Both the position numbers and the translations under genes were made by a program. DNA of 64,000 nucleotides from the UHGV virus genome UHGV-1353844. The stretch is one strand, 5' to 3'. Each line of letters opens with the position of its first letter. The stretch's first letter is position 1. The notes under the pieces were generated by a model that was not told where the DNA came from, did no database searches, and saw only the letters and a program-made list of their open reading frames with translations. The DNA comes from a virus. Positions 14,351-55,463 of the stretch are shown here, piece after piece.

Positions 14351-14391
14351 CTCCTACCCTCTTAGAGGGTAGGAGGTTACTTATTTTTTTC
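14351..14391. terminator. rho-independent terminator (bidirectional-like)
   Basis: CTCCTACCCTC-TTAG-AGGGTAGGAG followed by TTATTTTTTTC; lies between convergent genes. Confidence 0.6.
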
Positions 14392-15643
14392 TTGCACGGA
14401 AACGATGCATTTCCAAATAGACTTTTTCCCAGGGACCGAAAGGTCCTACGATTGCCTGTGCATCGTTAATTTTCTTCTGGTTATACCAACGGGCCTCACG
14501 GAACACGTAGTTTTGACTGTCGAATTCCGTGGTGTTAAATACCCATTCCCCTTCTTCCCACGTCGGCCAATAAGCAACGGTTTTACCGAAGCGGTTTAAC
14601 AGATAGCCCAGCTGTTTTTCCCCATCAGGGTCATTAGGATCTTTAAGGTATAAACGTCCCCAGATAGCGTTGTGAGAAACCCCCACAACTTCTTCTTCCA
14701 GATACGGATTATCCACCGTAAAGATAAACGACGACTCGTGGGTTAAAAGCGCCTTTAATGTTTCTGGGTTGCGGATACGCTGTACGCTGGTCGGGGATGA
14801 CAGATCGCCAACACCGATGCTATCCCAGTCGTAATAACGTCGGGTTTCTAACACAGTACGCGCAACGTCAAAGTTCGGTAACGAGACCATAATGGCTTTG
14901 TCGGAGAAGTACCCAGTAACCGGTAACCAGTGTATCAGACCCCCGATAACAAACCCCACGGTTTTACCCGTAATAGATTCCGGTAAAGAAATCATTAACG
15001 TGGAATAATAGTCACGGGTGGTGTCGAGTTTGTTTAGGGTCAAGTTAGCAATGGGGTACGTTTTAACATTCCCCAATTTACTAAAGACCATGCAGCCGAT
15101 ATCCGGTGTCCCTGCACGACGTACTATCTTACCCGCGCCCGGTAAACGTACACCAACTGTATCCGACTGATGTGGTACCCATTGACCGTTGATGTTGTAC
15201 AACACCCCGTTACGGTATTTGTCTTTCCATTTATCTTCGCAAACAATCACAACGTCGTCAGCATCGTCTATACTGAAATCTTGACTGTAATGGTAACCGG
15301 GAGGACACAGGTAGGTTTCTACTGGAACATCGGCATTAATCGATTGGTAGTGTGCCCAATCAAACTCTAACGTCGGTAAACCGTCTTTCAACGCAGAGAT
15401 AACCACACCGGCTTTTTCATTCAGCCAGTCTTGTAACGTATCGGTACGGTTTTGTAAGTCAGCGAGGTGATATTGGCTAATTAACGTATAGTCTTTACCA
15501 AGCGCACTCAGACCGACTTCGAAAATATGGTAATCAGAACACAAGGTTTCTAAGGGTTGCGTGACGTCGATGGCTCCCCAGGTACGGGTCTCTCGAGAGA
15601 AGCCAAAAGCGCTGTCAGGCCGCACTTGATAAGCAGTAGTCAC
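14381..15643 (-). CDS. hypothetical protein
   Basis: Track ORF (to 15859) would overlap the divergent fibre gene by 149 nt; in-frame GTG at 15643 has GAGG ~9 nt upstream, giving a 420-aa product and a 67-nt divergent intergenic region. Confidence 0.4.
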   Translation of the reverse strand: MTTAYQVRPDSAFGFSRETRTWGAIDVTQPLETLCSDYHIFEVGLSALGKDYTLISQYHLADLQNRTDTLQDWLNEKAGVVISALKDGLPTLEFDWAHYQSINADVPVETYLCPPGYHYSQDFSIDDADDVVIVCEDKWKDKYRNGVLYNINGQWVPHQSDTVGVRLPGAGKIVRRAGTPDIGCMVFSKLGNVKTYPIANLTLNKLDTTRDYYSTLMISLPESITGKTVGFVIGGLIHWLPVTGYFSDKAIMVSLPNFDVARTVLETRRYYDWDSIGVGDLSSPTSVQRIRNPETLKALLTHESSFIFTVDNPYLEEEVVGVSHNAIWGRLYLKDPNDPDGEKQLGYLLNRFGKTVAYWPTWEEGEWVFNTTEFDSQNYVFREARWYNQKKINDAQAIVGPFGPWEKVYLEMHRFRARKK

Positions 15644-15710
15644 AGCTCTTTTCCTCAATAGATTCAAGTCATAGTATGAACTCGACGCCCACGGACTATA
15701 GGAGTAGATA

Positions 15711-18700
15711 ATGGCTGTCGTCCTAGACCCACACTTCAAAGAACCGGGGAATAAAATAACCGGTGAAGCGGTCGCCGTCATTGGTACGAAGTACCGAATG
15801 TTGGTACCTGCCCACGCCCCTTTTTTCACCACATCCCTGGTGGTCAAGAGCGGCGGCAAAATACTGACCTTAGGCGACGATTACGTTATTACACACCCGT
15901 ACGAGACCGGTATGTTGCGCACAGCCTATCTCGTGCACGGGATGATTTGGATTGTTAATGACAAATACAAATCGAATTTCACGGTAGATTACCACGCCGT
16001 AGGTTGTGGTGAAGCGACCCAAGAACAGATTACCGCAGAACGCGAACTCAATAAAGATAAATACCCGTCTGCGTGTCAATGGGATACCGTTATCGGCGAA
16101 GTTTACTTTCCACCGGTCGATATTCAGTTCGACTGGGAAAACTGGAAAGGTGAACTGGAATTAATGCAGGCCATTGCAGGCTTAGGTGATTCGTTAGGTA
16201 ACGTGGTGAATCGGGTAGACCCGATTGCACGTAACACGTTAGATATCGAGCATCGTGCTAATGGTACGGTTATCACGTCTGAACAGTACGCAACGTACGA
16301 CAACAAAGGTGGGTATACTTACAATACCGCTAAACGCCGTTTCTCCGTTACGTACAAAACCACCACGTTAAATGAATATTCCCTGTCGATGAAATACCGT
16401 ATTCCGGCTATTTTTCCGAATATGGGGAGTATTAATCCGAACGAACAAATCGATTGGATGTTGTGCTACGCGAACGGTGGCGCAAGTATCCTTCGTCTCC
16501 AATTAAAACAACGTAAAATCAGCCTACGACTGACAGTTGCGTTAGGCAGTGGTTCGACCGATTATGATTATACGTTAATCAACGGTTTGACCGACGATGA
16601 ATTAAAAGGCGAATTAACGTTTAGCGTTGTTCGTCAACCGGGTAACGGTGTATACGTTATCGAGGTGACGACTAACAAACAGTCCATGGACTACACCTTT
16701 AACGTTGACACACCGCCAGACGAATTCTCAGCAGGTTACACCAAAACGGATGTTGCGAAGTGGCTGAAGTACAAAACCAACGTTAACTTAAACTGGTGGG
16801 CGGCTGAGAACGATTATGCTCAATTCCTTGCGTTACCTGGTGCGCCAGAAGCAGACGTAAGTAACGACGTTTATCAGTTAATCGTTAAGTACCATCAGTT
16901 AGTAGAACAGCTCTATCGCAACGCGCCTGCGCACGAACACGTCACCCGTAAGGATAACCCACACGCTGACACCTGGGGTCCGATTCGTGCGTTAGAATTA
17001 AACGGCATTGCATCCGACGCAGCATTAGCCTACGGGAAAACTAAGGAGCAATTAACCGATTACGTAAACGCTAAGTACCCAACGCAGGCAACGTTAACCG
17101 CCCAGAAAAAACTGCTTCGTGAATCAGCGAGCAAGAACGTTAACGGCACGATTACAACGCTCCCCGGCTTTACGTCATTTACTACTGAAGTCGACCCAGT
17201 GTCGATGTCGAAGTACGTGAGTCCTTATTTTAGTGAAAGCTATGTTAGTAGTGGCCACAGATATCACGGTGCGCTTCGTTATACAGGAACGAAAAGCGGT
17301 TTCAGTGCTAACTTTAATGCGGTACCTGCCAACCTGCAAGATATTGACTTTATTGTTACCGGACGTAAAACAGCGTCTGGTAATGAAGCGGTCGGTAGGG
17401 TTGGTTTTCGTTTCTACGAAAATCCCGGTAGTAACTCCGGTAAGTACGTAGAGATTACCGGTGAAGTCTGGTCCGGTACTCTTACTATCGAACTGGCGTT
17501 GCACGGTTACGGTAGTCCTGTACCGGCAGTTCGGTATATTTCGCAAGCTCCTAATCCGGCAATACCGGATGGGGATTTTACGCTACGTTTTCAACTGAAG
17601 CGTACAGGGAATGTGTTTGACGTCGTTATTACCGTAAACAGTAAAACGTATAGCGGTCGGATTAACTTCAATAACATGGACGCTGCGTTAGAAGCATTAG
17701 AGAATCAGCACCACTTTAAATCGCTGATCAATAATGTTGCTGACGGCGTCAATATTAGTTCGCAAAACAAAGGTAACACGGTTACCATTAAGAAAGCACC
17801 TGGCGTTGTTGACGAGAGACGTTTAGGTGCTCAGTTTGTCGTTGATCCGAAATCCATTAAGTTCATCGGTCAAGGTTCTACTGACGTTAACGTGGGTAAC
17901 AACCCGGTAACGTTGCAAGCGGGAGATAACCAGCTTGTGCTATATCCTGATGACCGTGGATTACTGTGGCGCGGTAAGAAACTCTTAGACCCCACTACGG
18001 TAGCGCCGTATTTGCCGGGCAATACCGCAGGCGGTACGGGATTATTCTACGGTGCAACTACAGCTACAGTGGAACTTACGGGTAGCGGGATTAAAGCGTC
18101 GCCGTTTGTCGCAACGTTTATTCTTCCGGTTGCCGAAGACGTTACTACGTTAGCGTGTTGGCAGTTAACGGACGAATTCGGTACGGCTGAAAACCTCGCA
18201 GCAACCCCTGCGTTAATTGAAAAACTGGACGCAGAGTTTACCGGTAAGTTAGTTGCCGCCAAGTCGTACATCAACGACATGCAGCTTACCAGTTCGGTTA
18301 CTATCGACAAAATTACCTTTGGTTTAGGTAACGTTGCGAATACCCCGGACGTTGACTTACCGATTTCTGTTGCACAGCAGACCGAGCTGGACAAATACTC
18401 ACCGAAGGTTCACCAACACCCGTCTTCCGTATTCGGTGTTGCGAACGCAGACACCACGAAACGGGGCCTGATTAAATTCGGTCTGGAAGTGGATGATGCC
18501 ACTTTAGCGCTCGACGGTAGTGTGGTGATGGCGCAGACTTCCCAGATTGAAGATTTGGAGAATACCGTCGGCGGGGTTGACTCGGGTGCGCGCGTTGACA
18601 TTATTCGCTTTGGTAAGTCCGGTAACGACCTAATTGACGTTACGGTTAAAGACAAAATCCTAGTGACACTTCCTGCTTCCACGTATTTCGTTGGCGGCGA

Positions 18701-20033
18701 AACGTACGACGTGCCGTTGATGTCGGTTAACGTCACTGAACGTTTCCCGAATCTGAATAAGGAAATTTACGCAGGGATTTTTGTTGACATTGTCGATAAC
18801 AAAGCGAAGTACATTATTCACGACAGCTACAGTCAGGCTGAAACGGATACCATGACGCGCGTGGGTCTAATCGGTATTAACGACCTTTCTGAAGTGTTCG
18901 TTACTGAACTACGTAACGTGACACGGTTAGGCGATTTCCGTGAGCTGAAAGACCACGTCGCCAATGATAACGCACACATTCAGCGTTCTGCTTCACGTGC
19001 AGTGCTGGGGTTAAGCAATTTAACAGTAGGTGCGCCCTGCTGGGCTTCTGGACTTCAAGCGGTTGTGCGTGGCGAAGCAGACTGGCGTTATGTGGTTGGC
19101 GGTGGATATAAAGCACTCGATGGTGTGAAATACGACCAGCTTGCGTCGAAGTGGGTGTTTGATGCAAAAGGGGTAAGTGATAACGTTCACGGGTTTATCC
19201 ACAACCTGTTCCCGGTATTTAACAATGCGGGGATGCGAGTCAGTTGGGAAACCGAAAGCAACGCAAAAACCGGAACGGTGCTAGAAACCATCCTGGCTTG
19301 CTGGAAAAATACCGAAGACGAGTTTATGCGGTTGTCGTTACTTATCACCCGTGGTTATCGTTTAACCGACAGTAACGGTGAGTATTGTTACGCCGGGTTT
19401 GGTTTAAACTTCGGTAACGGGAAATCCGTGGTGTTAGGTTTCACGCCGACCAAACGCGTTACCCCAGCACCGTGGAGTACGTTACATCCTGACGTATCAT
19501 TTACCCACACGCGTGGTGCGAATAACGAATTAACGTTTAACGCAACGCTGACCTTAGCAGGTACTGTTTACACTATTGTGGTGTATTTGTCTGCGGCAGA
19601 TAAATACGTAAGCTGTACGGCGGCAGGTGGTACTACGCAGAAAATCTCGCTGACCGACCGTTTAACTGGGTTCAACCTCGCGCCTATCGTTAACGATCCG
19701 TACACCCCTATTTACTACGGTTTAGGGGGACTTTATGAGGACGAAGTGCGTGCTAATATCCGTTCTACGACAGACAGCATAACCGGGAACAAACTCTACG
19801 GTACGCTGTTGGATTATATCAGCAACTACTCCTCGTTAAATCGTGTACGCGTCATGGAATTGGCCGGGACAAGCTCAGACCCTGAAACGCTTAATGCGCT
19901 AGTGGCAACCGAGTTTAATAACAGCCTGGCGGATTACGCTGCGTTACCGATACCTCCTTATCTTAACAAGGAGCGCGTAATGTCGTTTATCGACACCAAC
20001 AATAAAGTGCAGGCGGTAATCATTCGCGATTAA
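15711..20033 (+). CDS. large fibre-like structural protein (1440 aa) with shared N-terminal anchor module
   Basis: GGAG SD 8 nt upstream; N-terminus carries the P-F-F ... G-D-Y module shared by the next three genes; size and position suggest tail fibre/tailspike. Confidence 0.55.
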   Translation: MAVVLDPHFKEPGNKITGEAVAVIGTKYRMLVPAHAPFFTTSLVVKSGGKILTLGDDYVITHPYETGMLRTAYLVHGMIWIVNDKYKSNFTVDYHAVGCGEATQEQITAERELNKDKYPSACQWDTVIGEVYFPPVDIQFDWENWKGELELMQAIAGLGDSLGNVVNRVDPIARNTLDIEHRANGTVITSEQYATYDNKGGYTYNTAKRRFSVTYKTTTLNEYSLSMKYRIPAIFPNMGSINPNEQIDWMLCYANGGASILRLQLKQRKISLRLTVALGSGSTDYDYTLINGLTDDELKGELTFSVVRQPGNGVYVIEVTTNKQSMDYTFNVDTPPDEFSAGYTKTDVAKWLKYKTNVNLNWWAAENDYAQFLALPGAPEADVSNDVYQLIVKYHQLVEQLYRNAPAHEHVTRKDNPHADTWGPIRALELNGIASDAALAYGKTKEQLTDYVNAKYPTQATLTAQKKLLRESASKNVNGTITTLPGFTSFTTEVDPVSMSKYVSPYFSESYVSSGHRYHGALRYTGTKSGFSANFNAVPANLQDIDFIVTGRKTASGNEAVGRVGFRFYENPGSNSGKYVEITGEVWSGTLTIELALHGYGSPVPAVRYISQAPNPAIPDGDFTLRFQLKRTGNVFDVVITVNSKTYSGRINFNNMDAALEALENQHHFKSLINNVADGVNISSQNKGNTVTIKKAPGVVDERRLGAQFVVDPKSIKFIGQGSTDVNVGNNPVTLQAGDNQLVLYPDDRGLLWRGKKLLDPTTVAPYLPGNTAGGTGLFYGATTATVELTGSGIKASPFVATFILPVAEDVTTLACWQLTDEFGTAENLAATPALIEKLDAEFTGKLVAAKSYINDMQLTSSVTIDKITFGLGNVANTPDVDLPISVAQQTELDKYSPKVHQHPSSVFGVANADTTKRGLIKFGLEVDDATLALDGSVVMAQTSQIEDLENTVGGVDSGARVDIIRFGKSGNDLIDVTVKDKILVTLPASTYFVGGETYDVPLMSVNVTERFPNLNKEIYAGIFVDIVDNKAKYIIHDSYSQAETDTMTRVGLIGINDLSEVFVTELRNVTRLGDFRELKDHVANDNAHIQRSASRAVLGLSNLTVGAPCWASGLQAVVRGEADWRYVVGGGYKALDGVKYDQLASKWVFDAKGVSDNVHGFIHNLFPVFNNAGMRVSWETESNAKTGTVLETILACWKNTEDEFMRLSLLITRGYRLTDSNGEYCYAGFGLNFGNGKSVVLGFTPTKRVTPAPWSTLHPDVSFTHTRGANNELTFNATLTLAGTVYTIVVYLSAADKYVSCTAAGGTTQKISLTDRLTGFNLAPIVNDPYTPIYYGLGGLYEDEVRANIRSTTDSITGNKLYGTLLDYISNYSSLNRVRVMELAGTSSDPETLNALVATEFNNSLADYAALPIPPYLNKERVMSFIDTNNKVQAVIIRD

Positions 20034-20046
20034 GGAGAATTTTTTG

Positions 20047-23000
20047 ATGAAAGCGTATCCTTACGATCCTCGGGGGACGAAAACCGAGAATCACTTCTTA
20101 GAGGAGCGTATCATCGGGTCAGAAAACAACAACGACCGGGTGGTGATTTTAGACCATCGCCCGTTCTTTGAAGACTTAGTCGTCAGACAACCAGGTTCAA
20201 CCACCCCACTGAGCCGTGGGGTGGATTACGAACTGCAATATCAGCTGACGGAACTGGATGACTCGGTAGCAGCCAACGTGTATTGTGGGGTACACCTTAT
20301 CAACCCATCCATCAAAGGCATTGTAACCTTTGAAGGGCAAATGCTCGGCGGTACGTTCTACGACCCGTTCGTTGACATGCTCGACGAGCTGGTGAAATAT
20401 TTGAATAACCCGGTCAGTGCAGACTGGCTGTTGTTAGACGGTAGACCGTCGTTATACCCGGCTACGCCAGCGGCAACGTCCTGGGCGGACTTGCTGAACA
20501 AAAAATATTTAGCGTCAGCGATTCACGATATCGAGCTGAAAACCGATGATGCTAACCAGCTAATTAAAGATAAATTAGCCGAAGTTAAAGCGCTAGTGGC
20601 TGCGTTGGGGAAAGAAATCGAAGCGTTTAACTACCCAGCACATATCGCCGCGACGAACCCGCACGAAACCACGAGCGCACAAATTAATGCCCATCCCGTT
20701 AACCTGAAAACACCTGACACCTTTATGGCGTACGGGTTAAAATTAAAAGCGTTAACGGAAGAACTGAAAGCGTTTCGTTTACCACAGTCAGTTATTGACA
20801 CGTATATCTCCCACTGGATTTCTTCGGAAGTACGGGGCGTGTTTAACTGTACGGTGTCTGGAAACCGCGCACAGTTCCGTTCGAAAAATGGTGAGTCCGA
20901 AATCATTTTTGCGAATGATGGCTTTACGTTAAAATCCAACGGTTCTGTGGTATTGGCGGTAGGGCATCTGGAAGGCACAGGTGCGGGACGTTACATTAAC
21001 TGGCGTGCGGGTAAAAACACCTTACGTATCGAGTCAACCGGTGACGCTTTAGGGATGAACAAACTCACTCTGAACGGTAACCCGTTGTTGACCACCACAG
21101 CGCTGATGGAGTATCAGCAAGACCCTGATGCTGGCGGGAGTGGCGGTAGCGATCCTGATGACTCCAAAGTGTATATCGAAGGCCGTAACGGGATTAGTTT
21201 TACCGGTAAAGGTTCTCGTGCCGATCCTATCGTGGGGACTATCGACCCGACGAAAGCGACCACCGCTGAAAAAGGTGTTGTTAAACTTAAAACCGGTAAA
21301 GGCACAGAAACGGTTGGGGTTGCTGCAACCCCTGCGTCATTAACGCCGTATTCAACCGACTTATCAGGGTACGTGACTAAAACGACCATGATTAACGGTA
21401 AACCGATGAACGACGGTTCCAGGACAATCACAAAAGCTGACCTGGGATTAGGGCAAGCGGATAACACCGCAGACCTCGACAAACCGTTGTCAACCGCACT
21501 GAATGCTTCGGTTAGTGGTTTAGCAGACGTCGGACACCATCACGACTGGTCAGAGTTAGGCATTTATAAAGCCTCGCAGTCGATTTACGGCATCGGTCGT
21601 TACGCAACTAACCAGAACGGCTTAGTTGAAAACCGTGCGGTGGTACCGAACATCTTAAAAGAGCTTTCAGCCCGTTTAGATGTGGTGGCTGCTGCAATTG
21701 CAAACGCGAAAGAAGGCACGGTAACTGATTTTGCTGCTGTGAAAGGTGCAGACTGGCGCTTTAATAGCCAGGGTACGTCAATCTCCGTTCAGGATTTGAA
21801 ATATTTCTATTTGCTGGACGGGACGAAAGGCGACAGCACCGTTACTGGTGCGATTGACCTGCAAACCACCCCGATGTTTAACTGGTTCTCACCGAATAAC
21901 CAGCTTGAACTGACCTGGCCTACGGGTAAGGTGAGTAACGGTACGGGAATCAACTGGACGGGTATTGAAGAACCGCCGTTGATGGGGTTCCAGTCTGTCC
22001 CGGTAGGTAAAACTGCTACACAGATGGGTGACCAGTCAGTCGTTACGGTTCTGGCAAAAACGCGTGTAAGGGCGTACCAATCGAAGCTCTGGGTTTATGC
22101 CGCAGGGGGCGGACCGGTAACCGTTTATATCAACGGTAACCTAGCAGCTTCAGGCGAATCTCCACTCGTTGCAGTGTATGAAACGTCAGCAGACGTTGAA
22201 AACTACACGATTGCGGTTAAAGCTGAATGTAGTGACACGGCTAAGTCCGCAGCGGTACAGTTTGAAGTTTACGATGGGGATTACCCTGTTTACTTCAGTG
22301 GCCCTGAAACGCGCGTAGAGCTTCTCCAGGAGTTTGTTACCACGCACGTAGGGATTCGTCACTATCTGTACGTTAACATGCTCACAGGCTCTCTGTATTC
22401 GCGTGCTGAACCGATTCAGAGCATCGCAGTTGATCCTGAACGTGGTTATATCGGTTACGTTGATATTGTTGCTGGTGAGAATTACGCGAATAAAACGGTA
22501 GGGTTCGAAACCACGTTTGATTTCGGGAAAAGTGCCGAGGTTAGTGAACACATCGACACGCGTAAAGCACACGGACTCAGTTCTGTGGACTGGGCGTTAA
22601 CGGATAACCCACGTTTGCCGTTATTAAACCGTGCTATTGCCGAACCAAGAGCGTGTATCTTTAGGAAAGCGTTAACAGCCGGAACAGGTGATGTTTTCCA
22701 TCTTGTCAGTCGCGGTCTTTATACTTACGCACACAACCAAAACGTGAAGTCCAGTCTTCAGTACGTTGTGATGCCTGAAGGTGCTACACCGTATTGCTGG
22801 TTTACACCGTTTAACCCGAAAGAAAACAACGCACCGACGTTCGAAGGTTCGTTTGCATTCGATGTTGACGACGTCGGTGGAACACAAGCACTTACTGCCG
22901 CACCAGATTTGGTGCTATGTACGTCAACGCAAGGGGCGAGTGTTAAACGTCGTTATGTACGTATTGACCTGACGGACAAAGCGTGTAAGTTGGGGATTGG

Positions 23001-24228
23001 TTCCCGTTCAGTTTCAGACGTTACTGACATTCCGTTGGTAATGGAAGAGTCTGGGGAAACAGCGGTGAATGCAACGTTTAAGGACGTGTTGTTCAACGGT
23101 GAAGAAACCAACCCCGCGATTCTCGATTTGATTGGCTGGGGTGCCACCCGAGATAAAATCTCTGCAAACCATGCACCTCGTGGGATGATTCGTTACCGTT
23201 ATAACGTAAGTACGCGTGTGTTACGTTTAGCGTTGTCGTTCTCGCAGTTTGGGACGACGACAGTTAAACAACGTCAATTGGAGATTCAATTCCCGTTTGA
23301 CTTGGTGGATTATTTCACCGGTGACGGAATAGGGTTGTCGTTTAAAGAACTGAGCGCGAAATGCCGAGTAACAATTAGCCACGCACTGATTGATCCGGTT
23401 ACGAACAACATCGACATTGATAAGTATCATTACTTACGTTCGTTGTTTGAGTCGTATTTGGATTCATCCGTTGGGTATTTGGCTGATAACAAAGACGCTG
23501 ATTATAGTCAGTCTGTGATTGACCCTGCGACTTATGAGATTAGTCAAAAATACCGTGCCACGGAGAGCATTGCCTTGCCAACTGGTCAGGGAAACGTTGC
23601 GGTTTCTCACGATGGGCAGTTACCTGCGCAGTTCTTTGATCGTAAGCTGTCTCGCGGTGCGCTGATGGCGAAGAAAAACGAACTGCATACTTCCTGGAAC
23701 AACGAGTGGAGTACGACTAAGGCTGCTGCAAGTCGTTATCGTCACAAACTCATTCTCCGTTTTGCACAAGGTGCCGATAAACAACAGTACCGAATTGCAA
23801 AAGTGTCAGGAACGATAAAAAGTAACTGGCCAGGTAAGGTGATTATCGGCGACGCAGGGAAAGACCCATTCTTAGCGTCTACTGATAGCGCAGAGTTTGC
23901 TCTGTCAACCAGTGCTGACGTAGGTAAAGCGATTAGTATCACGGCCACCGACTTACGTGTAGGTCAGGACATCTATATTGTCTTAGACCCGCCGGGTGAT
24001 AATCCCGAAGGTTACGAGCTTAACTTTACCTGTTCGTTAGACGTGACTGATGAGCAAAGCACTCGTCAGGATCAGCTTAATGCGCAGAGCTTCGAACTGC
24101 GTAGCGGTGAAAAGCAGTTCTTAATGGAGAAACGCAATCCGTACCATATCACGAGTAAAGCGTGGAAATGGATACTTTCTGTACTGAAACGTGAACTTAA
24201 CGGGAAGCAGTTAGGGGATCGTACTTAG
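20047..24228 (+). CDS. tail fibre protein (1393 aa) with shared N-terminal anchor module
   Basis: ATG at 20047 with AAGGAG SD (track starts at TTG 20044); N-terminal HRPFFEDLVV...GVDYEL module; canonical tail-fibre motifs ATTAEKGVVKLKT and ITKADLGLGQADNTADLDKPLSTAL. Confidence 0.65.
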   Translation: MKAYPYDPRGTKTENHFLEERIIGSENNNDRVVILDHRPFFEDLVVRQPGSTTPLSRGVDYELQYQLTELDDSVAANVYCGVHLINPSIKGIVTFEGQMLGGTFYDPFVDMLDELVKYLNNPVSADWLLLDGRPSLYPATPAATSWADLLNKKYLASAIHDIELKTDDANQLIKDKLAEVKALVAALGKEIEAFNYPAHIAATNPHETTSAQINAHPVNLKTPDTFMAYGLKLKALTEELKAFRLPQSVIDTYISHWISSEVRGVFNCTVSGNRAQFRSKNGESEIIFANDGFTLKSNGSVVLAVGHLEGTGAGRYINWRAGKNTLRIESTGDALGMNKLTLNGNPLLTTTALMEYQQDPDAGGSGGSDPDDSKVYIEGRNGISFTGKGSRADPIVGTIDPTKATTAEKGVVKLKTGKGTETVGVAATPASLTPYSTDLSGYVTKTTMINGKPMNDGSRTITKADLGLGQADNTADLDKPLSTALNASVSGLADVGHHHDWSELGIYKASQSIYGIGRYATNQNGLVENRAVVPNILKELSARLDVVAAAIANAKEGTVTDFAAVKGADWRFNSQGTSISVQDLKYFYLLDGTKGDSTVTGAIDLQTTPMFNWFSPNNQLELTWPTGKVSNGTGINWTGIEEPPLMGFQSVPVGKTATQMGDQSVVTVLAKTRVRAYQSKLWVYAAGGGPVTVYINGNLAASGESPLVAVYETSADVENYTIAVKAECSDTAKSAAVQFEVYDGDYPVYFSGPETRVELLQEFVTTHVGIRHYLYVNMLTGSLYSRAEPIQSIAVDPERGYIGYVDIVAGENYANKTVGFETTFDFGKSAEVSEHIDTRKAHGLSSVDWALTDNPRLPLLNRAIAEPRACIFRKALTAGTGDVFHLVSRGLYTYAHNQNVKSSLQYVVMPEGATPYCWFTPFNPKENNAPTFEGSFAFDVDDVGGTQALTAAPDLVLCTSTQGASVKRRYVRIDLTDKACKLGIGSRSVSDVTDIPLVMEESGETAVNATFKDVLFNGEETNPAILDLIGWGATRDKISANHAPRGMIRYRYNVSTRVLRLALSFSQFGTTTVKQRQLEIQFPFDLVDYFTGDGIGLSFKELSAKCRVTISHALIDPVTNNIDIDKYHYLRSLFESYLDSSVGYLADNKDADYSQSVIDPATYEISQKYRATESIALPTGQGNVAVSHDGQLPAQFFDRKLSRGALMAKKNELHTSWNNEWSTTKAAASRYRHKLILRFAQGADKQQYRIAKVSGTIKSNWPGKVIIGDAGKDPFLASTDSAEFALSTSADVGKAISITATDLRVGQDIYIVLDPPGDNPEGYELNFTCSLDVTDEQSTRQDQLNAQSFELRSGEKQFLMEKRNPYHITSKAWKWILSVLKRELNGKQLGDRT

Positions 24229-24265
24229 GACAGGCTGCCTGCGGGCAGTTGTGTGTCCGTAGGTA

Positions 24266-24300
24266 ACCCCTCCCTGTAATGGGGAGGGGTATCCATTTTA
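24266..24300 (+). terminator. terminator-like hairpin between fibre genes
   Basis: ACCCCTCCC-TGTAAT-GGGGAGGGGT followed by ATCCATTTTATTT. Confidence 0.45.
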
Positions 24301-24322
24301 TTTAAAAGTAGGAGTCTTTACG

Positions 24323-27300
24323 ATGCCGAGAGAAGACGCGGCGCAGTTTAACGGTACGCTAAGCACAGCGACGTACCCTAACCGATTTAACGTGGTCATT
24401 CCGCCTGAAGGACCTTTTTATCGTATCGGATTAAAACTCACAGTAGCCGACGATACCGCGCCTAACGGACGTCGTACTCTGATTGAGGGGTTGGACTACT
24501 ATTTAGGCTATTACTTTAAAGAACTCGCAGAAGCTGAACAAGATCAGATTTACGGCGGGTTTATGTTGCTTACTGCAACAGAAATCGAATATGAGATTTT
24601 AGGGGTAGCACGTCAATACCGTGTACCGCAATCTGAAATCGGGAAGTTCTTAGTTCGTACTGACCTGAAAGACCCACGTAACGTGGACTGGTCTGAACTA
24701 ATGGCGTATGCGCCGGTTATTCAGCCTATCGACCCGCCTGCTAACTTAGAAGAAGCGATTCTGAGGGATGAGGTTGTTAAGGCGTTAGAAGACATTCGCA
24801 AGAAAATCATCAAACGTTCTACGGAATTAGATGCTGCGTTCAGTGAAGTCACTAACTTGATTTACGAGAACGGTAAAAAGGTTTTCGACGAAGAGTTATA
24901 CCAGCATCACCGTAACCCTAACGCGCATCATTATACCACTGATGACATTGCTGCTCTCCCGGTATTAGGTCGTGCTGTTGACGCTACAAAAGCGTTTGGG
25001 TTGACGATTGACGAGTTGGCTACGCTGATGGGTTCAGCGGGTATTGAGCAATCGGACGTTGACCAGTTAATGGGTGAAGCCCTCGGCACCGTTTACGGTC
25101 GATGGGGTACCACGAACGGTAATGAATTAACGTTTAAAACGTCAGGTGGCCACATCATCAGTATTCGTGGTGATAAGTGGTTAATTACCTCGCCACAACC
25201 GTTGGTGATTAAAGCAGACCAGGACAACAACGAATCGGGTTTAGCGGTTGAATTCAGTGCGGGTCTGAATACGCTTTGGGTTCACTCGGGGTCGGAACAG
25301 GACGTATTAGCGCCAGTTTATAACTCCGTGTACCTGGTTACACCAGAAATGGTGAACATGTATCTGACGTCAGTAACGTTGCTTGAAGCAAACGCGTATT
25401 TCAAAGCGTCAGACACTGTAAAACCGTACGGTACCGCAAAACAGACTAACCCGGTTACGTTAAACGCGAATATTCCCACGGCGTCCGAATCAGTTTATGG
25501 GTTGTTCTCGATTACGAATATCTCTACGTCTGCGGCGTTAGGTACTGCTATCTCCCAGAAAGCTGTAACAGAATTAAAAGACCGCTTGGACTTGTACGTT
25601 GACGATGACTATACCGTTAACGGTAAAGGGTTTGTTAAAACAGGCGACAATATGGTGTTAACCTTAACGAAAACCGATTTCGGTATCGATAAGATGGATA
25701 ACACCATACCGAGTGATAAGCCTGTGACAAAAGCGTTAACGAACGTGTTGAAAAACAAGAGTTTGAAAACGCACACCCACACCACTGCTGACTTGGATAA
25801 CGTCCCGATTGGTAGTGCAACGGTTGACGGTATCTTACAGCTCTGGGATGCAATTGACACCACTAACGATAAAGCTGTCACGTCGCGTCAAGGCTGGTTG
25901 TTCGCAAAAGAGATTAAGAAGGTCTCTGATAAACTGAATACCATCTTACCGGCGTGGACGGTAGGTGGAGCGAAATTCGGTAACAAGAACTTCTTACCTA
26001 TCCCAGCGTTAGGTAACTACGCAGGCTATACCAAAAACCAGTCCTACCAGAAAGGGGTTGTTGGGTATCAGCAGGGTAAGGTTTATTCGCTCCGTAACGG
26101 TTCTAACGGCGTGCCGGGTACGGAAGCTATTTATTACGGCTATGCTGACATTGACACGTCAAACGCGTTTGTAAATCCGCAGCAGACCTCAGTGAAATAT
26201 CACCCTGCCGGGATGAGTAAATATCCTGGGGTGACCCTAATAGCGATATTGATCGGTGGCCAGGAAGCGATTATTTGCCTGGGTTCTGACAATAACCGTT
26301 ATTTGGTGCTGTTTAATGGCTCGATGGACCACACTAAGCACACGGTGGTATGTCGCGTTACGATGCCCGTGTACCGTAACGGCAACCCCAGTGGTACTGT
26401 GGAACAAACCTGGAACCCGTGGCCGGAAGCTGACGATGTCGTGTTGGTTGAGGACTACGTTTATCTTCTCCGTTCAACGGTAAATAACTCCGCTTACGCC
26501 GTAGCAGCTTGGCGTCTACGTAAGGCCGATTTGTCTACTAACACTACGTTAGAATTTGAACGTGTAACTCTAACCGGCGAGATGGGACAATTCGGAGATA
26601 ACCTCTGCTTGCGTATTGGTCAGAAAACCGAAGAGTCGCAAACGGGTCAATTCTTTACATATCTCACACCGGAGGGTCGTGCTAAATGGACGATCGGGCG
26701 TAACTTTGTTCACGGTCCAGAATGTAACCACGCGTGTGCTGTGCGCGATAGCGTGATTCGTGTGAACCATATGCCTACCGTGTGGTTTGCAGCGGCCGAC
26801 GGTACGACGATTAATTTCCTTCAATGGGCAACAAGTTTTACAATCGATACGTTGACGGGCAAGGTTACGTTAGAAGGCCGCGAACGCTTCCCCATCAAGG
26901 CTGATGCTACTACTACACTCTCGTTCGCAGATGGTTCAACTGTAGGAACCAATCGTAAGTGGGGTGGTGGCCAGGCAAACAACCGTTGTTTCGCGACGTA
27001 TGCTAAACCCAACGGTACAGGAATGATGCTTTCCTGTTGGCAAATTGCCGATGCGGACCAAATGCCTAATGTTTCTATTAAGAGTACACAAGGCAGAGAG
27101 CTTTTCGATTATCTGCGTTACGATAACCCAAACAACACCTCGGGCGAAGGAACGTTTACCTGGGATAAAGGCCGTGGCTCCATTTACACCATCGGTTTGT
27201 CTTATCCAGTAGGGATTGGTGGTTCGAATAAGGTCTGGTTATCGAACCCTCGTAACCGTTACACGATCGAAGTGGAAGTTGATCCGAACAAACCTTACGA

Positions 27301-29509
27301 TGTTTCTGGGTATAGTGGGTACGGTCCGAACAACAACCGTCGTGAAGTCGATCCAACGCTTTACGAGCAGCTTAGCTGTATGGCTGCGTGCATGATCCCT
27401 GAGGAGCGTCATGGACAGTTGAACGGCTGGTATTTGACCAAAGCAGAAACGTTCCCGTATCGTAACATCTACGGTAACTTCGCATTGTCTTCCGAACGCT
27501 TAACGCTAGAAGAAGCCGATCGGCAGAAAATGATTCGGATGATCGTTGACGGTGCGCCATCTGGTCAAGCAAATGGTTACGCGAACGAACGTATTAGTGC
27601 TGCACATCAAACCGGTAATGCATTGTTTGCTCTTTGGATGTTGGGTATCAACACCGTGTGCGAATTTGACTTGTTGCAAGTTTCGTGCATGAAAACCTCA
27701 AGTAACGGACGTCGAATTCTTGACATCTATTACTTCATGGTGAGCCCATCTAAAGAGAACGGCTACTTACGTTTCAACTCAGCCACCTTTAAGTTGGTGG
27801 ACTGGTTCTTAGACCTCGATTATGGTTTAAGTTATCAGTCACTAAATGGGGGAGCGGGAGGTAAAACGAGGCGCGTGGGGCAGCCTATTTTTGCATCTGC
27901 GGATGGAACTAACTTCGGTATCTGGTTACCTTATACGTTAACTACCCGAAATATCGGGGACTTAAACGCCCTGGGCTACGCTGCTAAATATACCTTCGAC
28001 CCTGGTTCAGGTTGGACACGCGTTGCAGGTAAATCACAGTTACGGCAGATGGCCCCTGAACATAGACCAGAATCTGGGTGCTATATGGGTGCCGGTGATT
28101 GGGACAAGATGGCGTTGATTTACTCTAAAGCTGACCGTGTTTTCTGTTCAGGTAACGCGTATACAGCCGCAGAGTTCGTTAACGACACGACGTTCTCAAC
28201 CGGAGGTCAGGCGGTTATTATTGCCGGTGTGGAAACAGCGGAAGGTTGGATTCTGTATTTGACAGAAGAAGTCAAATTAGATTTCGGTAGCAGCAGTTAC
28301 ACACTCCCAACGTGGTCTGTGGATTTAAGCAGTGAGTTCCCATCCAATCACGCTAACCAGACGTTCTACGTGCACGCTGAGGTGTCGGGTTCTACCGCGC
28401 AATACCGCATCGGTTTGGAGCAGTTAGCCGATACCTCAACAAGACTGTTCGTTGGGACAGTAACCACCGATTCCAGCCGTATTACTGGTATCAGTATCGA
28501 CAAAGTAAAACGTTTGGGTCGTGTGAAAGAACTGGAAGACCACGCAGCAATTATCGACCAACACGATGTAGCAGCAGCGTTTGACAGAAAGACGGGTCCT
28601 CTATTAACACTGGTTAACAAGCCCGTTAAAGCACCTACGGCGTCTGCGTCGAAAGGTGAAGGGTATGTTGACGGTCAGAAATGGGGTTCACTGTCCGGCA
28701 TTACGACGCGTCCTAAGTTACCAATTCAGGAAACGTATTCGGGTTATAAGAGCGTGGCCAGGGTAGCGTATGAGAACTGCGCTGACCAATTCTGGCAGAA
28801 AGCGGTAGCTGCTAACATTGCGACAGCCACTGCTTCTGAGAACATGCAGGCAGCGTCTGCGAACATGAAATGGATTGGTGCGTATACGAAACCGACTACC
28901 GGAACGAATGCTTACTTAGCATTGAGTTTGCGTGTTCAGGTGCCAGGTAATCCAGGAACGGCGAATCGTGCTCTGAAACTACGACTTGCTGCACCAACCG
29001 GTATTGTTGAAGCTCGGTATGCATTAAACCAGGCCGGTGGTACGATGACTGAACAAACGGTAACGTTAACCGCCAACCAGTACCTGGAAAAAGAGCACAG
29101 TGGGTTTAAACCTGCCGAGGAGGTTCGTGTTCATGTCACGTTCGTTATTCCGAAGAACGAGTATGAAAGTTATCGTACGAAGTTTGGGGCGGTACAGTTG
29201 ATTGACGTTGAATCGAACACCATCGTCAAGCAGGCTGATATCGACACACCGTTCTTTGTCTTTACGGACACTGAACTGGCTGCGCAATCTGGTTTGGTGT
29301 ATAAAGCGGTCAAGGGTCAGTTTGACAATCTCCCGAGTGAACCTACGCTCATTGTCCGAGATGGTCAGACCGGAACTAACCCACCGGTGAAATCGTCTTA
29401 CGCTAACGGTACGCTAACCGTTTACGTAGCGACCGCGTACGATGCCGTGAATCCGGCGGAAACTCGCGATATCGACAAACTCCAGTTCAATCTTATGTTT
29501 ACATCTTAA
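24323..29509 (+). CDS. tail fibre protein (1728 aa) with shared N-terminal anchor module
   Basis: AGGAG SD; N-terminal EGPFYRIGL...GLDYYL module; fibre motifs VYGLFSITNISTSAALGTAIS and DKMDNTIPSDKPVTKAL. Confidence 0.65.
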   Translation: MPREDAAQFNGTLSTATYPNRFNVVIPPEGPFYRIGLKLTVADDTAPNGRRTLIEGLDYYLGYYFKELAEAEQDQIYGGFMLLTATEIEYEILGVARQYRVPQSEIGKFLVRTDLKDPRNVDWSELMAYAPVIQPIDPPANLEEAILRDEVVKALEDIRKKIIKRSTELDAAFSEVTNLIYENGKKVFDEELYQHHRNPNAHHYTTDDIAALPVLGRAVDATKAFGLTIDELATLMGSAGIEQSDVDQLMGEALGTVYGRWGTTNGNELTFKTSGGHIISIRGDKWLITSPQPLVIKADQDNNESGLAVEFSAGLNTLWVHSGSEQDVLAPVYNSVYLVTPEMVNMYLTSVTLLEANAYFKASDTVKPYGTAKQTNPVTLNANIPTASESVYGLFSITNISTSAALGTAISQKAVTELKDRLDLYVDDDYTVNGKGFVKTGDNMVLTLTKTDFGIDKMDNTIPSDKPVTKALTNVLKNKSLKTHTHTTADLDNVPIGSATVDGILQLWDAIDTTNDKAVTSRQGWLFAKEIKKVSDKLNTILPAWTVGGAKFGNKNFLPIPALGNYAGYTKNQSYQKGVVGYQQGKVYSLRNGSNGVPGTEAIYYGYADIDTSNAFVNPQQTSVKYHPAGMSKYPGVTLIAILIGGQEAIICLGSDNNRYLVLFNGSMDHTKHTVVCRVTMPVYRNGNPSGTVEQTWNPWPEADDVVLVEDYVYLLRSTVNNSAYAVAAWRLRKADLSTNTTLEFERVTLTGEMGQFGDNLCLRIGQKTEESQTGQFFTYLTPEGRAKWTIGRNFVHGPECNHACAVRDSVIRVNHMPTVWFAAADGTTINFLQWATSFTIDTLTGKVTLEGRERFPIKADATTTLSFADGSTVGTNRKWGGGQANNRCFATYAKPNGTGMMLSCWQIADADQMPNVSIKSTQGRELFDYLRYDNPNNTSGEGTFTWDKGRGSIYTIGLSYPVGIGGSNKVWLSNPRNRYTIEVEVDPNKPYDVSGYSGYGPNNNRREVDPTLYEQLSCMAACMIPEERHGQLNGWYLTKAETFPYRNIYGNFALSSERLTLEEADRQKMIRMIVDGAPSGQANGYANERISAAHQTGNALFALWMLGINTVCEFDLLQVSCMKTSSNGRRILDIYYFMVSPSKENGYLRFNSATFKLVDWFLDLDYGLSYQSLNGGAGGKTRRVGQPIFASADGTNFGIWLPYTLTTRNIGDLNALGYAAKYTFDPGSGWTRVAGKSQLRQMAPEHRPESGCYMGAGDWDKMALIYSKADRVFCSGNAYTAAEFVNDTTFSTGGQAVIIAGVETAEGWILYLTEEVKLDFGSSSYTLPTWSVDLSSEFPSNHANQTFYVHAEVSGSTAQYRIGLEQLADTSTRLFVGTVTTDSSRITGISIDKVKRLGRVKELEDHAAIIDQHDVAAAFDRKTGPLLTLVNKPVKAPTASASKGEGYVDGQKWGSLSGITTRPKLPIQETYSGYKSVARVAYENCADQFWQKAVAANIATATASENMQAASANMKWIGAYTKPTTGTNAYLALSLRVQVPGNPGTANRALKLRLAAPTGIVEARYALNQAGGTMTEQTVTLTANQYLEKEHSGFKPAEEVRVHVTFVIPKNEYESYRTKFGAVQLIDVESNTIVKQADIDTPFFVFTDTELAAQSGLVYKAVKGQFDNLPSEPTLIVRDGQTGTNPPVKSSYANGTLTVYVATAYDAVNPAETRDIDKLQFNLMFTS

Positions 29510-29549
29510 TGACTCGAGACAAGGACGTCTCGAATAAAGGAGAGTGGCC

Positions 29550-30749
29550 ATGGCCTCCATTGTTTATCAATATCCTTTAGATTTAACGGGCTCGCTAACG
29601 TCTAACGCTGTAGAGCGTCAGATTACGTTAGGTACAGGTAAAGTAAACCGTGCTTTTGCTTTTCCTGACGGCCCGTTCTTTGCGGACACGTTCCGTTTAC
29701 GTGTTGCTAACCGACCGGATGCAACCTACGAACGTGGTACCGATTATGAGTTGATTTTTGCACACCCGACTTATGAAAAGCTGACTAAAAACCGCGAGAT
29801 TGTTATGGCGGTGGTGGTCACTAACACAGCGATTCCAACAGATATTACGGTATCTGCGCAGGTCGTTGGTGGTCCACAGTCTGCGAACATTGTGGCTATC
29901 GAACAGGCGATTGCTGAATTAAACCTCGATAACCGTACGATTGCGTTTAAAGACCTGCGTAACGTACCGGATACATTCCCATCTGCACCGACGTATAAAG
30001 ACGTGGGTGACATCTACGGTTTTGAATATATCATTACCGTATTGGCGGGTATTAAAGATGCGATCAGTTCCGGTGACGCGGTACAGTTAGAGAACATTAA
30101 AGCGATTTTAGAAAGCCTGAAAAATGACTTCTTAGACGCTTTAAATGCACACATCAACGCAACCGGTAACGTTCACCATCTTGATATTCATCAGGTTAAC
30201 GGGTTAACAGAAACTGAAATCCGTGCGCTTATTCGTGACGTCCAGTCTGCCATCGACGCAACGATTACGGAAATCAATGCACTGAAGAAAGCGGACGAAG
30301 CTTTAGGTAAGCGTATTGACGCTGTTGTCAACTCTCTGGAAGCGTGGAACGACCAACTTAACGTGGTTGCTCAAAACTACCAGAAAATGGCCTTAGCGTT
30401 AGCGAACCTGAACTCGTTAGTGTTACAACTGCAAAAGAGCATCAACGATTTAAACACAAAACTGAATCAGGTTATTCAGCGTGTTGCCGCGTTAGAGCAA
30501 CAGGGTCAAGAAACCGATCAGAAAATCGATCAGGTACAACAGAACCTGGATGCGCTTAAACAGCAAGTTAACAATAACACGAACGCAATCAGTCAAGCGA
30601 ACCAGAACCTACAAAACCACATCGCGGCAGATAACCCGCACACCGGTTATCTCCACAAGAGATACGGTGGTGTGGTTCAGGCCCCAGTACACGTTAACGC
30701 TAACCTGACGTCTCGTGATGACGTACAGGCGGAAGCGGGTACGAAATAA
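29550..30749 (+). CDS. fibre-associated protein (399 aa) with shared N-terminal module and C-terminal coiled coil
   Basis: ATG at 29550 with AAAGGAG SD (track starts at GTG 29544); N-terminal DGPFFADTFRL...GTDYEL; C-terminal half Q/N/L-rich heptads. Confidence 0.55.
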   Translation: MASIVYQYPLDLTGSLTSNAVERQITLGTGKVNRAFAFPDGPFFADTFRLRVANRPDATYERGTDYELIFAHPTYEKLTKNREIVMAVVVTNTAIPTDITVSAQVVGGPQSANIVAIEQAIAELNLDNRTIAFKDLRNVPDTFPSAPTYKDVGDIYGFEYIITVLAGIKDAISSGDAVQLENIKAILESLKNDFLDALNAHINATGNVHHLDIHQVNGLTETEIRALIRDVQSAIDATITEINALKKADEALGKRIDAVVNSLEAWNDQLNVVAQNYQKMALALANLNSLVLQLQKSINDLNTKLNQVIQRVAALEQQGQETDQKIDQVQQNLDALKQQVNNNTNAISQANQNLQNHIAADNPHTGYLHKRYGGVVQAPVHVNANLTSRDDVQAEAGTK

Positions 30750-30814: not shown

Positions 30815-31207
30815 ATGGCGATTAGTGTTAAACAAATGCGCGATCGGTTAACCACAGTAGAAAATACAGTCGCTACCGGCCCTCGTGTCAATGCGCAGGT
30901 CGCATCGAAAGCGCATAACGCGGCAGATTCGTTTTCCGGTTGGACGCCTTCGCGTTTAGACTGCGGAGGAGCGTGTTCGTGGACATGTTCTAACGGATGT
31001 ACTCACGGTTGCTCGAGCTGTTCAGGAAACTGTTCAGCGTCGTGCGTGGGTAGCTGCTCTTCGTCCTGTGGGGGCAACTGTTCGGGATGCTCTGGCTGCT
31101 CGGGGGCTTGTTCTAGCAGTTGTACAAGTACCTGTACTGGAAGTTGTACTGGGCGTTGTTCGCATAACTGTTCGGGTGCTTGCTCCGGCGGTTGCTCTGG
31201 TCGATAG
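30815..31207 (+). CDS. Cys-repeat protein 1 (130 aa): N-terminal leader-like region + (Cys-x3)n core; candidate radical-SAM substrate
   Basis: AAGGAAG SD; C-terminal ~80 aa has 20 Cys at almost strict 4-residue periodicity separated by S/G/T/A/N (…CSWTCSNGCTHGCSSCSGNCSASC…). Confidence 0.55.
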   Translation: MAISVKQMRDRLTTVENTVATGPRVNAQVASKAHNAADSFSGWTPSRLDCGGACSWTCSNGCTHGCSSCSGNCSASCVGSCSSSCGGNCSGCSGCSGACSSSCTSTCTGSCTGRCSHNCSGACSGGCSGR

Positions 31208-31216
31208 GGGGAAGAA

Positions 31217-31612
31217 ATGGCGGTTGGATTAGCTGAATTAGTAAGACGTCTTAATAACGTCGATAGTATCGCGCTGAAAAACACCACAGGTGTACAGAAC
31301 TACATCCGCAATAAGGCCACGAATAACGCGGACCTGTTCGGTGGTCGGAATCGTGCGCATTATGACTGTGCGGGCACGTGTTCCTTTACCTGCTCGAGTT
31401 GCTCTGGTGGCTGTACAGGGAACGCGTCTGGTGGTTGCGGTTCTTCATGCTCTGCAAACTGTACGTCAGGGTGTTCAAGTAGCTGTTCAGGGTGTTCGGG
31501 GAGTTGTTCGGGTGGGTGCGCTAATGCGTGCTCGGGCACTTGTACGGGCGGCTGTACAGCATCGTGCTCCAGTAGCTGTACCGGTGGCTGCTCGTCGTGC
31601 ACAGGACGATAG
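31217..31612 (+). CDS. Cys-repeat protein 2 (131 aa), paralog of 30815..31207
   Basis: Divergent N-terminal ~50 aa then (Cys-x3)n core (…CSFTCSSCSGGC…CSGSCSGGCANACSGTC…). Confidence 0.55.
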   Translation: MAVGLAELVRRLNNVDSIALKNTTGVQNYIRNKATNNADLFGGRNRAHYDCAGTCSFTCSSCSGGCTGNASGGCGSSCSANCTSGCSSSCSGCSGSCSGGCANACSGTCTGGCTASCSSSCTGGCSSCTGR

Positions 31613-55385: not shown

Positions 55386-55417
55386 GATATTTAATTCTCT
55401 ATCGGGAGCTAAAAGAT

Positions 55418-55444
55418 CTGGGGGAGGTAAAGCACCTCCCCCAA
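55418..55444 (-). terminator. hairpin between 1001-aa gene and long tail fibre gene (possible partial terminator)
   Basis: TGGGGGAGGT-AAAGC-ACCTCCCCCA; weak T-run on minus strand. Confidence 0.35.
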
Positions 55445-55463
55445 CATTTTTATAAGCGGGTTA

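Follow-up and report, generated by a model that had tools for sequence, protein, structure and literature searches.

We analysed a 64,000-nt stretch of viral DNA (UHGV virus genome UHGV-1353844, referred to here as the window), in which four consecutive open reading frames (ORFs), called here A to D, lie on the plus strand at 15711-30749, next to a divergently oriented gene on the minus strand. By megablast and tblastn, the window belongs with the jumbo phages of the SPN3US / Erskinevirus / Machinavirus / Derbicusvirus group, and no close nucleotide match to it (>80% identity) was found in the phage collection searched. An earlier reading of this DNA, made from the letters alone (the sequence-only reading), had described A to D as four fibre-like proteins with one common N-terminal anchor. 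We consider it probable that these genes form the conserved locus for the peripheral tail fibres of a jumbo myophage related to phiKZ (SPN3US/Erskinevirus-like) and, jointly with this, that the paralogs, by analogy with phiKZ, co-assemble into heteromeric fibre bases beneath a homologue of phiKZ gp130. The five genes of the locus are as follows.

14381..15643, minus strand: gp130-like peripheral-baseplate protein, 420 amino acids (aa), GTG start, ribosome-binding site GAGGA; orthologue of SPN3US gp171; phrog_3337, E 6.5e-145
15711..20033, plus strand: protein A, 1440 aa; orthologue of SPN3US gp170 and Asesino gp190; phrog_7557, E 0; synteny
20047..24228, plus strand: protein B, 1393 aa, ATG start; orthologue of SPN3US gp169 and Asesino gp189; phrog_8078, E 0; synteny
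24323..29509, plus strand: protein C, 1728 aa; orthologue of SPN3US gp168 and Asesino gp188; phrog_7449, E 0
29550..30749, plus strand: protein D, 399 aa, ATG start; orthologue of SPN3US gp167; phrog_2163, E 7e-103

The starts of A to D were set by the orthologues, and with these true starts the lengths of 1440, 1393, 1728 and 399 aa given by the sequence-only reading are correct. In B, the mechanical ORF extends too far, to the TTG at 20044; its orthologues begin with MKTYPYDP. Genes called independently on a Logan contig that is nearly identical had 1440, 1393, 1727 and 399 aa, with C called at 1727. Similarly, the mechanical ORF at 14381-15859 (492 aa) over-extends the gp130-like gene by 72 codons and overlaps A; the orthologue-backed GTG at 15643 matches all the orthologues and leaves a divergent intergenic region of 67 nt. 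The PHROG matches are near full-length in B (phrog_8078, residues 2-1391) and in C (phrog_7449, residues 1-1728), and in A the best stretch of phrog_7557 covers residues 704-1440, the match being broken by an insertion. C has 57 orthologue clusters. The near-identical copy of the locus lies in a public run assembly (Logan SRR29999939, a contig of 45.6 kb), and the 90% clusters hold 656 member sequences for D and 803 for C, which suggests that the phage or its close kin are common in raw data.

We then examined the N-termini of the four proteins, for which the sequence-only reading had proposed one shared module with the motif P-F-F/Y ... G-x-D-Y. The motif is real, since its P, F, G, D and Y are invariant in a four-way alignment of the N-termini, the invariant positions being P39, F40, G58, D60, Y61, G101 and P138. 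A direct BLASTP comparison of the N-termini was significant for B-C (7e-19) and B-D (5e-7) only, and A-B, A-C and C-D gave no significant pairwise match. When profiles of each orthologue group, built from eight phages, were compared by hhalign, all six paralog pairs were significant, with P values from 1e-3 (C-D) to 1.5e-12 (B-D), and each group also matched the N-terminal profile of phiKZ gp131, gp133, gp134 and gp135 (P 2e-8 to 1e-18). Profile comparison with the long and short classes of this family gave P values of 1e-19 to 3e-36. A hidden Markov model (HMM) made from the four phiKZ N-termini alone retrieved just A to D among the 407 six-frame ORFs of the window (E 1.7e-15 for D, 1.2e-14 for B, 1.1e-12 for A and 4e-3 for C, with the next ORF at 0.3); a mixed HMM matched the N-domain of C with E 2e-36, and phrog_2163 was matched by the N-terminus of all four proteins (E 6e-16 to 7e-103). 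The similarity thus survives statistical alignment tests, and chance as the origin of the motif is ruled out by the hhalign profiles and the phiKZ-only HMM. Judged by these sequence comparisons, the N-module of A to D is homologous to the gp131-like N-terminal domain of phiKZ.

No Pfam or NCBIfam family was found for the whole of A to D or for their N-terminal 170-220 aa, D giving coiled-coil noise only, and the N-module of the phiKZ proteins is likewise without a Pfam or NCBIfam model in the copies searched. A phmmer search of all four proteins against the PDB sequences gave nothing meaningful. A profile of the four N-termini from the window matched 3157 representative clusters at E<=1e-3 (1823 at 1e-10), and in 150 of the 150 hits listed, in proteins of 149-2164 aa, the module lies at or near the N-terminus (start at or before residue 38).

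As for its extent, the shared N-terminal module is not ~70 aa long, as had been thought, but forms a unit of ~210 aa, which consists of a beta domain of ~145 aa, a helix of ~50 aa and an H-x(4-6)-N-P/V/A-H motif (NPH motif). The NPH motif is at residue 408 in A, 200 in B, 195 in C and 201 in D, and at 185-208 in the phiKZ paralogs. The distance between the N-domain and the motif is equal in B, C, D and all the phiKZ paralogs; in A, a variable cassette of 190 aa separates the N-domain from the helix and so shifts the motif to 408. The corresponding features in the three long proteins are listed here.

15711..16205, plus strand: gp131-like N-terminal attachment domain of A, residues 1-165; phiKZ-only HMM E 1.1e-12; hhalign P 2e-17
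16788..16970, plus strand: helix and HEHVTRKDNPH motif of A, residues 360-420; matches the helix of the phiKZ six-helix bundle; displaced by the cassette at residues 167-355
20047..20688, plus strand: N-domain, helix and HIAATNPH of B, ~214 aa; HMM E 1.2e-14; hhalign B-D P 2.5e-12 over residues 5-215
24323..24952, plus strand: N-domain, helix and HHRNPNAH of C, ~210 aa; hhalign P 1e-21 to the gp131-class profile

The regions that follow the module had been called unrelated, which is true only in part. Homology between B and C runs through the first ~500 residues (B33-519 with C24-506, hhalign P 5e-33), this stem is also present in A (A360-923 with B145-520, P 4e-20), and a distal domain of 135 aa is shared by A and C. 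Protein A is composed, in order, of the N-domain, the variable cassette, the helix with the NPH motif, the stem, the shared distal domain and a variable tip. A fibre-like motif, G-L-G-x-x-x-N-T-x-D-x-D-K-P-x-S, is found in the stems of A, B and C at homologous places; the sequence-only reading had noticed a canonical tail-fibre motif in two of the proteins, and three have it, with no call by Pfam. The matches behind this motif are weak ones from PHROG (phrog_35419, tail fibre, E 1e-5 to 2e-3). No Pfam fibre-repeat family (Phage_fiber_2, PTR and similar) scored above its gathering threshold, the whole of A, B and C being empty at E<=0.1 and the excised segments matching only PTR (E 0.03, 14.8 bits versus a cut-off of 27).

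18321..18368, plus strand: degenerate fibre-repeat motif GLGNVANTPDVDLPIS of A, residue 871; phrog_35419 tail fibre, E 1.8e-4
18609..19010, plus strand: distal domain of A in common with C, residues 967-1100; hhalign P 7.6e-13; BLASTP 3.6e-7
21445..21492, plus strand: fibre-repeat motif GLGQADNTADLDKPLS of B, residue 468; phrog_35419, E 1.2e-5
25682..25729, plus strand: fibre-repeat motif GIDKMDNTIPSDKPVT of C, residue 454; phrog_35419, E 1.9e-3; Pfam PTR, E 0.03
28193..28597, plus strand: distal domain of C in common with A, residues 1291-1425; hhalign P 7.6e-13; phrog_3573, E 5e-43

The gene upstream of A matches phiKZ gp130, both by BLASTP (E 1e-12) and by hhalign of its eight-phage profile (P 6e-13, over almost the full length), and it has the same divergent position in 15 of the 15 related loci examined. 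Nine phage types (phiKZ, SPN3US, CR5, LucasX, RP12, PCH45, Ea35-70, KpLz-2_45 and Moabite) were scanned with the N-module and gp130 HMMs, and in all nine a divergent gp130-like gene is followed by two to four N-module genes; the other SPN3US-like relatives that were fetched have the same layout by annotation and synteny. Beside the gp130 homologue, there are four N-module genes in phiKZ, three in Ea35-70 and two each in LucasX, RP12, PCH45, KpLz-2_45 and Moabite. In phiKZ too, gp130 is divergent from gp131-gp135, and the paralogs share the N-domain, the helix and an HxxxxNPH motif. The two phages differ in that phiKZ has one long and three short paralogs and the present phage three very long ones (1393-1728 aa) and one short one, and in that phiKZ has an additional small protein, gp132, with the NPH motif alone. 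A fibre complex of phiKZ gp130 with gp131, gp133, gp134 and gp135 was reportedly described by Sycheva et al. in 2012.

In the 2026 phiKZ atlas made by cryo-electron microscopy (cryo-EM), twelve gp130 monomers lie in the outer baseplate with a fibre-attachment site beneath each of them, and each fibre base contains six gp131-like N-domains and a six-helix bundle (PMC13250141). The authors propose a candidate hetero-hexamer of gp131x3 + gp133 + gp134 + gp135, with 12 gp130 and 12 fibres per virion (PMC13250141). The description of the shared N-terminus as an anchor is therefore borne out, in that the module is homologous to the phiKZ gp131-like N-domain placed at the fibre-attachment sites and a gp130 homologue adjoins the cluster. 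By sequence and by analogy with phiKZ, the gp130-like protein is predicted to be a docking platform above the fibre base.

The five genes recur, with order and orientation unchanged, in seven relatives that belong to four genera, and none of these has lost or gained a paralog. The closest known orthologous clusters are those of Salmonella phage SPN3US, Cronobacter phage CR5 and the Erwinia phages Asesino, phiEaH2, ChrisDB, Huxley and Phobos. In SPN3US, gp171 corresponds to the upstream gene and gp170, gp169, gp168 and gp167 to A, B, C and D, respectively. All of gp167-171 were found in SPN3US virions by mass spectrometry (PMC5694885, PMC5105663), gp168-170 are missing from a tailless mutant and were described as 'Paralog family C', candidates for baseplate or tail-fibre proteins resembling phiKZ gp131 (PMC5694885), and gp168 was classed as a tail protein that is 'expected essential' and gp171 as essential and tail-associated (PMC5105663). 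The cluster is hence already published as the SPN3US paralog family C / phiKZ gp131 family, and the arrangement is not new; gp167 (D) is not listed in family C in the SPN3US papers. The sequence-only reading had named absence from virions as a reason to abandon it, and the orthologues gp167-170 are virion proteins of SPN3US. Their spectral counts per kDa are 1.00 for gp170, 1.41 for gp169, 1.08 for gp168 and 1.90 for gp167, with 0.74 for gp171 and 0.93 for the 12-copy portal.

The relatedness of the N-domains was examined in a neighbour-joining tree (150 HMM-aligned columns, 200 bootstraps). In phages with two paralogs, the second gene falls with D and with phiKZ gp133, gp134 and gp135 in a short ('S') clade with 100% support, and the first gene falls with gp131 in a clade with 88% support. 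Outside the short clade, the orthologues of A, those of B and those of C each form a clade of their own, again at 100%. In agreement with the tree, the D profile is closer to the S profile (hhalign P 3e-36) than to the long ('L') profile (1e-19), which makes D a short-class member, and the C profile is nearer the gp131 class (1e-21 versus 6e-12). Each of the scanned phiKZ-related genomes has at least one short-class N-domain and at least one other; this is the case in LucasX, RP12, PCH45, Ea35-70, KpLz-2_45, Moabite and phiKZ, and in Ea35-70 the short genes come first. The N-domains are only 15-26% identical between paralogs, compared to 38-86% between orthologues. Since each orthologue group of N-domains is a 100%-bootstrap clade and the gene order is kept in the seven relatives, the paralogs are, on these sequence data, ancient and non-interchangeable.

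We next compared the three long proteins along their length with those of the seven relatives. The identity of A, B and C to the relatives falls from 70-86% at the N-terminus to 13-40% at the C-terminus, so that, compared to the nearest relatives, the distal regions of this phage are only 13-40% identical; such a gradient is typical of receptor-binding proteins, to judge from the sequences. A is 29-54% identical to its seven orthologues (54% to SPN3US). Compared to the SPN3US-like phages, A has a unique insertion of 203 aa, for which a search of the protein database gave no homologue; an internal duplication of A 160-400 as the origin of residues 495-697 was rejected (local alignment z = 0.09). 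The variable cassette of A lies at 16209-16853 (residues 167-381), between the N-domain and the helix. It is 63-69% identical to that of SPN3US and ~10-13% identical to those of Asesino, ChrisDB and SNUABM_29, and Huxley has no cassette.

17193..17801, plus strand: insertion in A, 203 aa, residues 495-697; in this phage only, among the eight compared
25910..29506, plus strand: distal 1199 aa of C, residues 530-1728; AlphaFold2 mean predicted local distance difference test (pLDDT) 84.7, predicted template modelling score (pTM) 0.67
30210..30626, plus strand: long single helix of D, residues 221-359, pLDDT 70-88; predicted coiled coil; only coiled-coil-type Pfam and NCBIfam hits

The AlphaFold2 model of the distal region of C is almost all beta, with beta-propeller and beta-sandwich domains, and the propeller is of the lectin/glycosidase type, a likeness at the fold level only (6-12% identity). 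A receptor-binding-type propeller is thus predicted for C, as in phiKZ gp131C, and no sequence similarity of A, B and C to the C-terminal propeller of phiKZ gp131 was found past residue ~215-265. The parallel beta-helix of tailspike depolymerases was not seen in the modelled structures (C distal region and D). Of the depolymerase or lectin folds that had been suggested as a search among the C-terminal regions, the model of C provides a beta-propeller and no beta-helix depolymerase, and it makes the distal region of C a candidate carbohydrate-binding or carbohydrate-hydrolysing head.

Protein D differs from the three long proteins. Its identity to the relatives is uniform along its length, with no gradient from the N- to the C-terminus, and amounts to 73-77% for the closest relatives (76-77% for SPN3US and Asesino) and 43-66% for ChrisDB, Huxley, Phobos and CR5. 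In the AlphaFold2 model (pLDDT 69), residues 10-110 form a beta domain, residues 157-203 helices and residues 221-359 one helix of 139 residues; D is thus made of the N-domain with the helix and NPH motif, the 139-residue helix and then a second NPH motif. The best Foldseek hits of the D model recall a T7 gp17-type adaptor, being fibre-attachment domains of podoviruses (8ck1_B, 7ey9_a/b, 7boz_c and 8es4_F), and are insignificant (E 0.03-0.4, probability <=0.6, TM score <=0.35), so that they are a lead only. The sequence-only reading had counted D among the receptor-binding proteins; uniformly conserved and predicted to be mostly one helix of 139 residues, D is by these comparisons and by its model not a receptor-binding protein but a structural coiled-coil subunit.

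If phiKZ is a guide, six N-domains and six helices would form one fibre base docked beneath each gp130-like subunit, and the four paralogs would be subunits of one heteromeric fibre base rather than four fibres competing for one site. D would be the conserved structural subunit, belonging to the same ancient short class as gp133, gp134 and gp135, and is probably a trimeric coiled coil. The three long proteins would have in common the proximal stem of ~500 aa, followed by the large, fast-evolving distal regions, which may point towards the cell and serve in host recognition, with the distal region of C and its lectin/glycosidase-type propeller as a putative host-facing head. As to the stoichiometry, we infer either A+B+C plus three D per site, or homotrimers of A, B or C, each with a D trimer.

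The sequence-only reading had instead envisaged several receptor-binding proteins docking independently onto one baseplate site in a branched apparatus, which is not what is seen in the only solved relative, where six paralog N-domains co-assemble in one base. We regard it as unlikely that A, B and C (and D) are independent homotrimeric receptor-binding proteins, sitting on equivalent sites or on each other as in a multi-tailspike assembly, although some of the data agree with it: a common N-terminal adaptor is joined to divergent distal parts, and the module, seen in the 3157 clusters, is joined there to C-terminal parts of 150-2164 aa, like a portable adaptor. In addition, the existence of two-paralog phages makes hexamers of two homotrimers plausible, and A3D3 + B3D3 + C3D3 would give the same D:A ratio as a heterotrimer. 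However, three kinds of homotrimers do not spread evenly over the 12 six-fold-related sites of phiKZ, the counts per kDa of the A, B and C orthologues are about that of the 12-copy portal, and none of the seven relatives has lost or gained a paralog. Moreover, the low N-domain identity between paralogs, compared to that between orthologues, points to distinct and non-equivalent positions, and D has no distal domain of a receptor-binding type.

Phages such as CBA120, G7C and those of the phiK64-1 type carry tandem large host-recognition proteins whose N-terminal attachment regions are conserved and whose distal domains vary. In these multi-tailspike systems, the N-terminal adaptors differ and build a hierarchical branch, and each tailspike is homotrimeric, whereas A to D all use one homologous N-domain, which is packed six-fold in phiKZ. 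No sequence or fold relationship to the multi-tailspike adaptors was found by the Pfam scan of A to D or by Foldseek of D. Co-assembly fits the data better because the gene number and order are fixed over four genera, the N-domains are conserved in a paralog-specific manner and the A, B and C orthologues are near-equimolar. This comparative evidence falls short of proof.

Several points weigh against co-assembly and against a receptor-binding role for the long proteins. The model of assembly is taken over from phiKZ, a phage with only 15-30% identity, and the phiKZ fibre base itself was read at 4.4-4.6 Å by docking AlphaFold3 models, with a stoichiometry given as 'candidate' (PMC13250141). The spectral-count ratio of D to A, B and C in the SPN3US orthologues is 1.5-2.4, not 3. 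The assignment of A and B to the gp131 L class was unsupported, as both are about as far from the L profile as from the S profile and no bootstrap value backs a link to L. In Foldseek, no structure matched the D model at E<=0.001 in a PDB copy to 2026-04-08, which predates the phiKZ atlas and may well omit its entries. The receptor-binding role of A, B and C is predicted, the likeness of the modelled propeller being one of fold, and the separate canonical fibre with its adhesin at 50137-58469, described below, could be the main determinant of the host range.

A more specific arrangement, which we put forward tentatively and hold to be possible rather than probable, is a conserved 3+3 base, in which an (A, B, C) heterotrimer and D3 in this phage would correspond to gp131x3 and gp133/134/135 in phiKZ, opposite halves of the base having been subfunctionalised in the two lineages. 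The D homotrimer would then be held by the 139-residue coiled coil, and A, B and C would share the 500-aa stem as a pseudo-threefold structure. If this were true, each of the ~12 fibres would show three different distal heads, and a true heterotrimeric fibre would be unusual among phage fibres.

The core observation is already contained in the SPN3US and phiKZ literature, and no new biological principle emerges from it. The additions are modest, namely D as a fourth, short-class member, the ~210-aa unit, the long and short classes across the phiKZ-related phages and the lineage-specific insertion in A. In practical terms, ~16 kb of genes that were 'hypothetical' or 'virion structural' are re-annotated as a gp130-like platform and four gp131-family subunits, and the ~210-aa N-terminal unit is a useful marker for jumbo-phage fibre genes, as it has no Pfam or NCBIfam model and yet heads at least 3157 clusters. 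The long/short split and the opposite expansion of paralogs in phiKZ and the SPN3US-like phages lead to a testable prediction on heteromeric fibre assembly, and the distal parts of A, B and C would be the regions to swap for host-range engineering.

Elsewhere in the window, at 50137-58469 on the minus strand, lies another tail-fibre module, which is canonical and lacks the gp131-like N-domain. Its mosaic fibre shows 51-58% identity to the tail fibres of P1, P2 and Goslar, over 44-58% of its length. A mosaic acquisition of this module is suggested by its GC content of 0.49-0.50, compared to 0.39-0.41 just upstream. Three DUF7941 proteins are also encoded; a 2026 preprint on Goslar proposed that proteins of this family join head to tail into filaments and so make up a 'fibre cloud' on the peripheral baseplate. 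Since the canonical fibre module and the DUF7941 paralogs are in the window too, several systems are likely to take part in host recognition by this phage.

36351-36881, 36951-37487 and 40648-41496, minus strand: three DUF7941 proteins
50137-50919, minus strand: 'host specificity' adhesin, 260 aa; phrog_2056
50919-55385, minus strand: mosaic fibre, 1488 aa; Pfam Gp34_trimer and Peptidase_S74 chaperone
55464-58469, minus strand: tail protein, 1001 aa; phrog_2871

These genes bear on a further explanation, in which the four proteins of the locus would be mainly structural parts of the oversized peripheral baseplate, with no role in recognising the host, and adsorption would be carried out by the canonical fibre with its adhesin (50137-58469) together with the DUF7941 proteins. 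A canonical fibre like those of P1, P2 and Goslar, with Gp34_trimer and the S74 chaperone, and an adhesin gene are indeed available for this function, as are paralogs of a family proposed to act as host-recognition fibres in Goslar; D is uniformly conserved, and A, B and C have no Pfam or NCBIfam call for a receptor-binding domain. However, the steep divergence of A, B and C from the N- to the C-terminus and the turnover of the cassette and insertion in A are typical of host contact, and the model of C contains a propeller of the lectin/glycosidase type. Furthermore, the homologue gp131 is found at the baseplate periphery, on the fibres of phiKZ (PMC13250141). A mainly structural role for the four proteins, without host recognition, is very improbable.

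Within the locus, a scan for sigma-70 promoters and terminators gave background numbers (21 versus 20.5 and 23 versus 19.9 expected) and was not used for the operon structure. A strong GC-rich hairpin (stem of 11 bp with 7 GC pairs, followed by a T-rich tail) lies at 24266-24290, within the 94-nt spacer between B and C; this spacer is ~90 nt in most relatives but only 4 nt in CR5 and Phobos. The genes downstream of D include two pairs.

30815-31207 and 31217-31612: tandem paralogs directly after D, 130 and 131 aa, both phrog_6085
32862-33779 and 33769-35103: two adjacent radical-SAM proteins, phrog_1802

The slot directly after D holds different small genes in different relatives, and the radical-SAM pair is kept just downstream of the fibre locus in all the SPN3US-like relatives and also in Ralstonia phage RP12.

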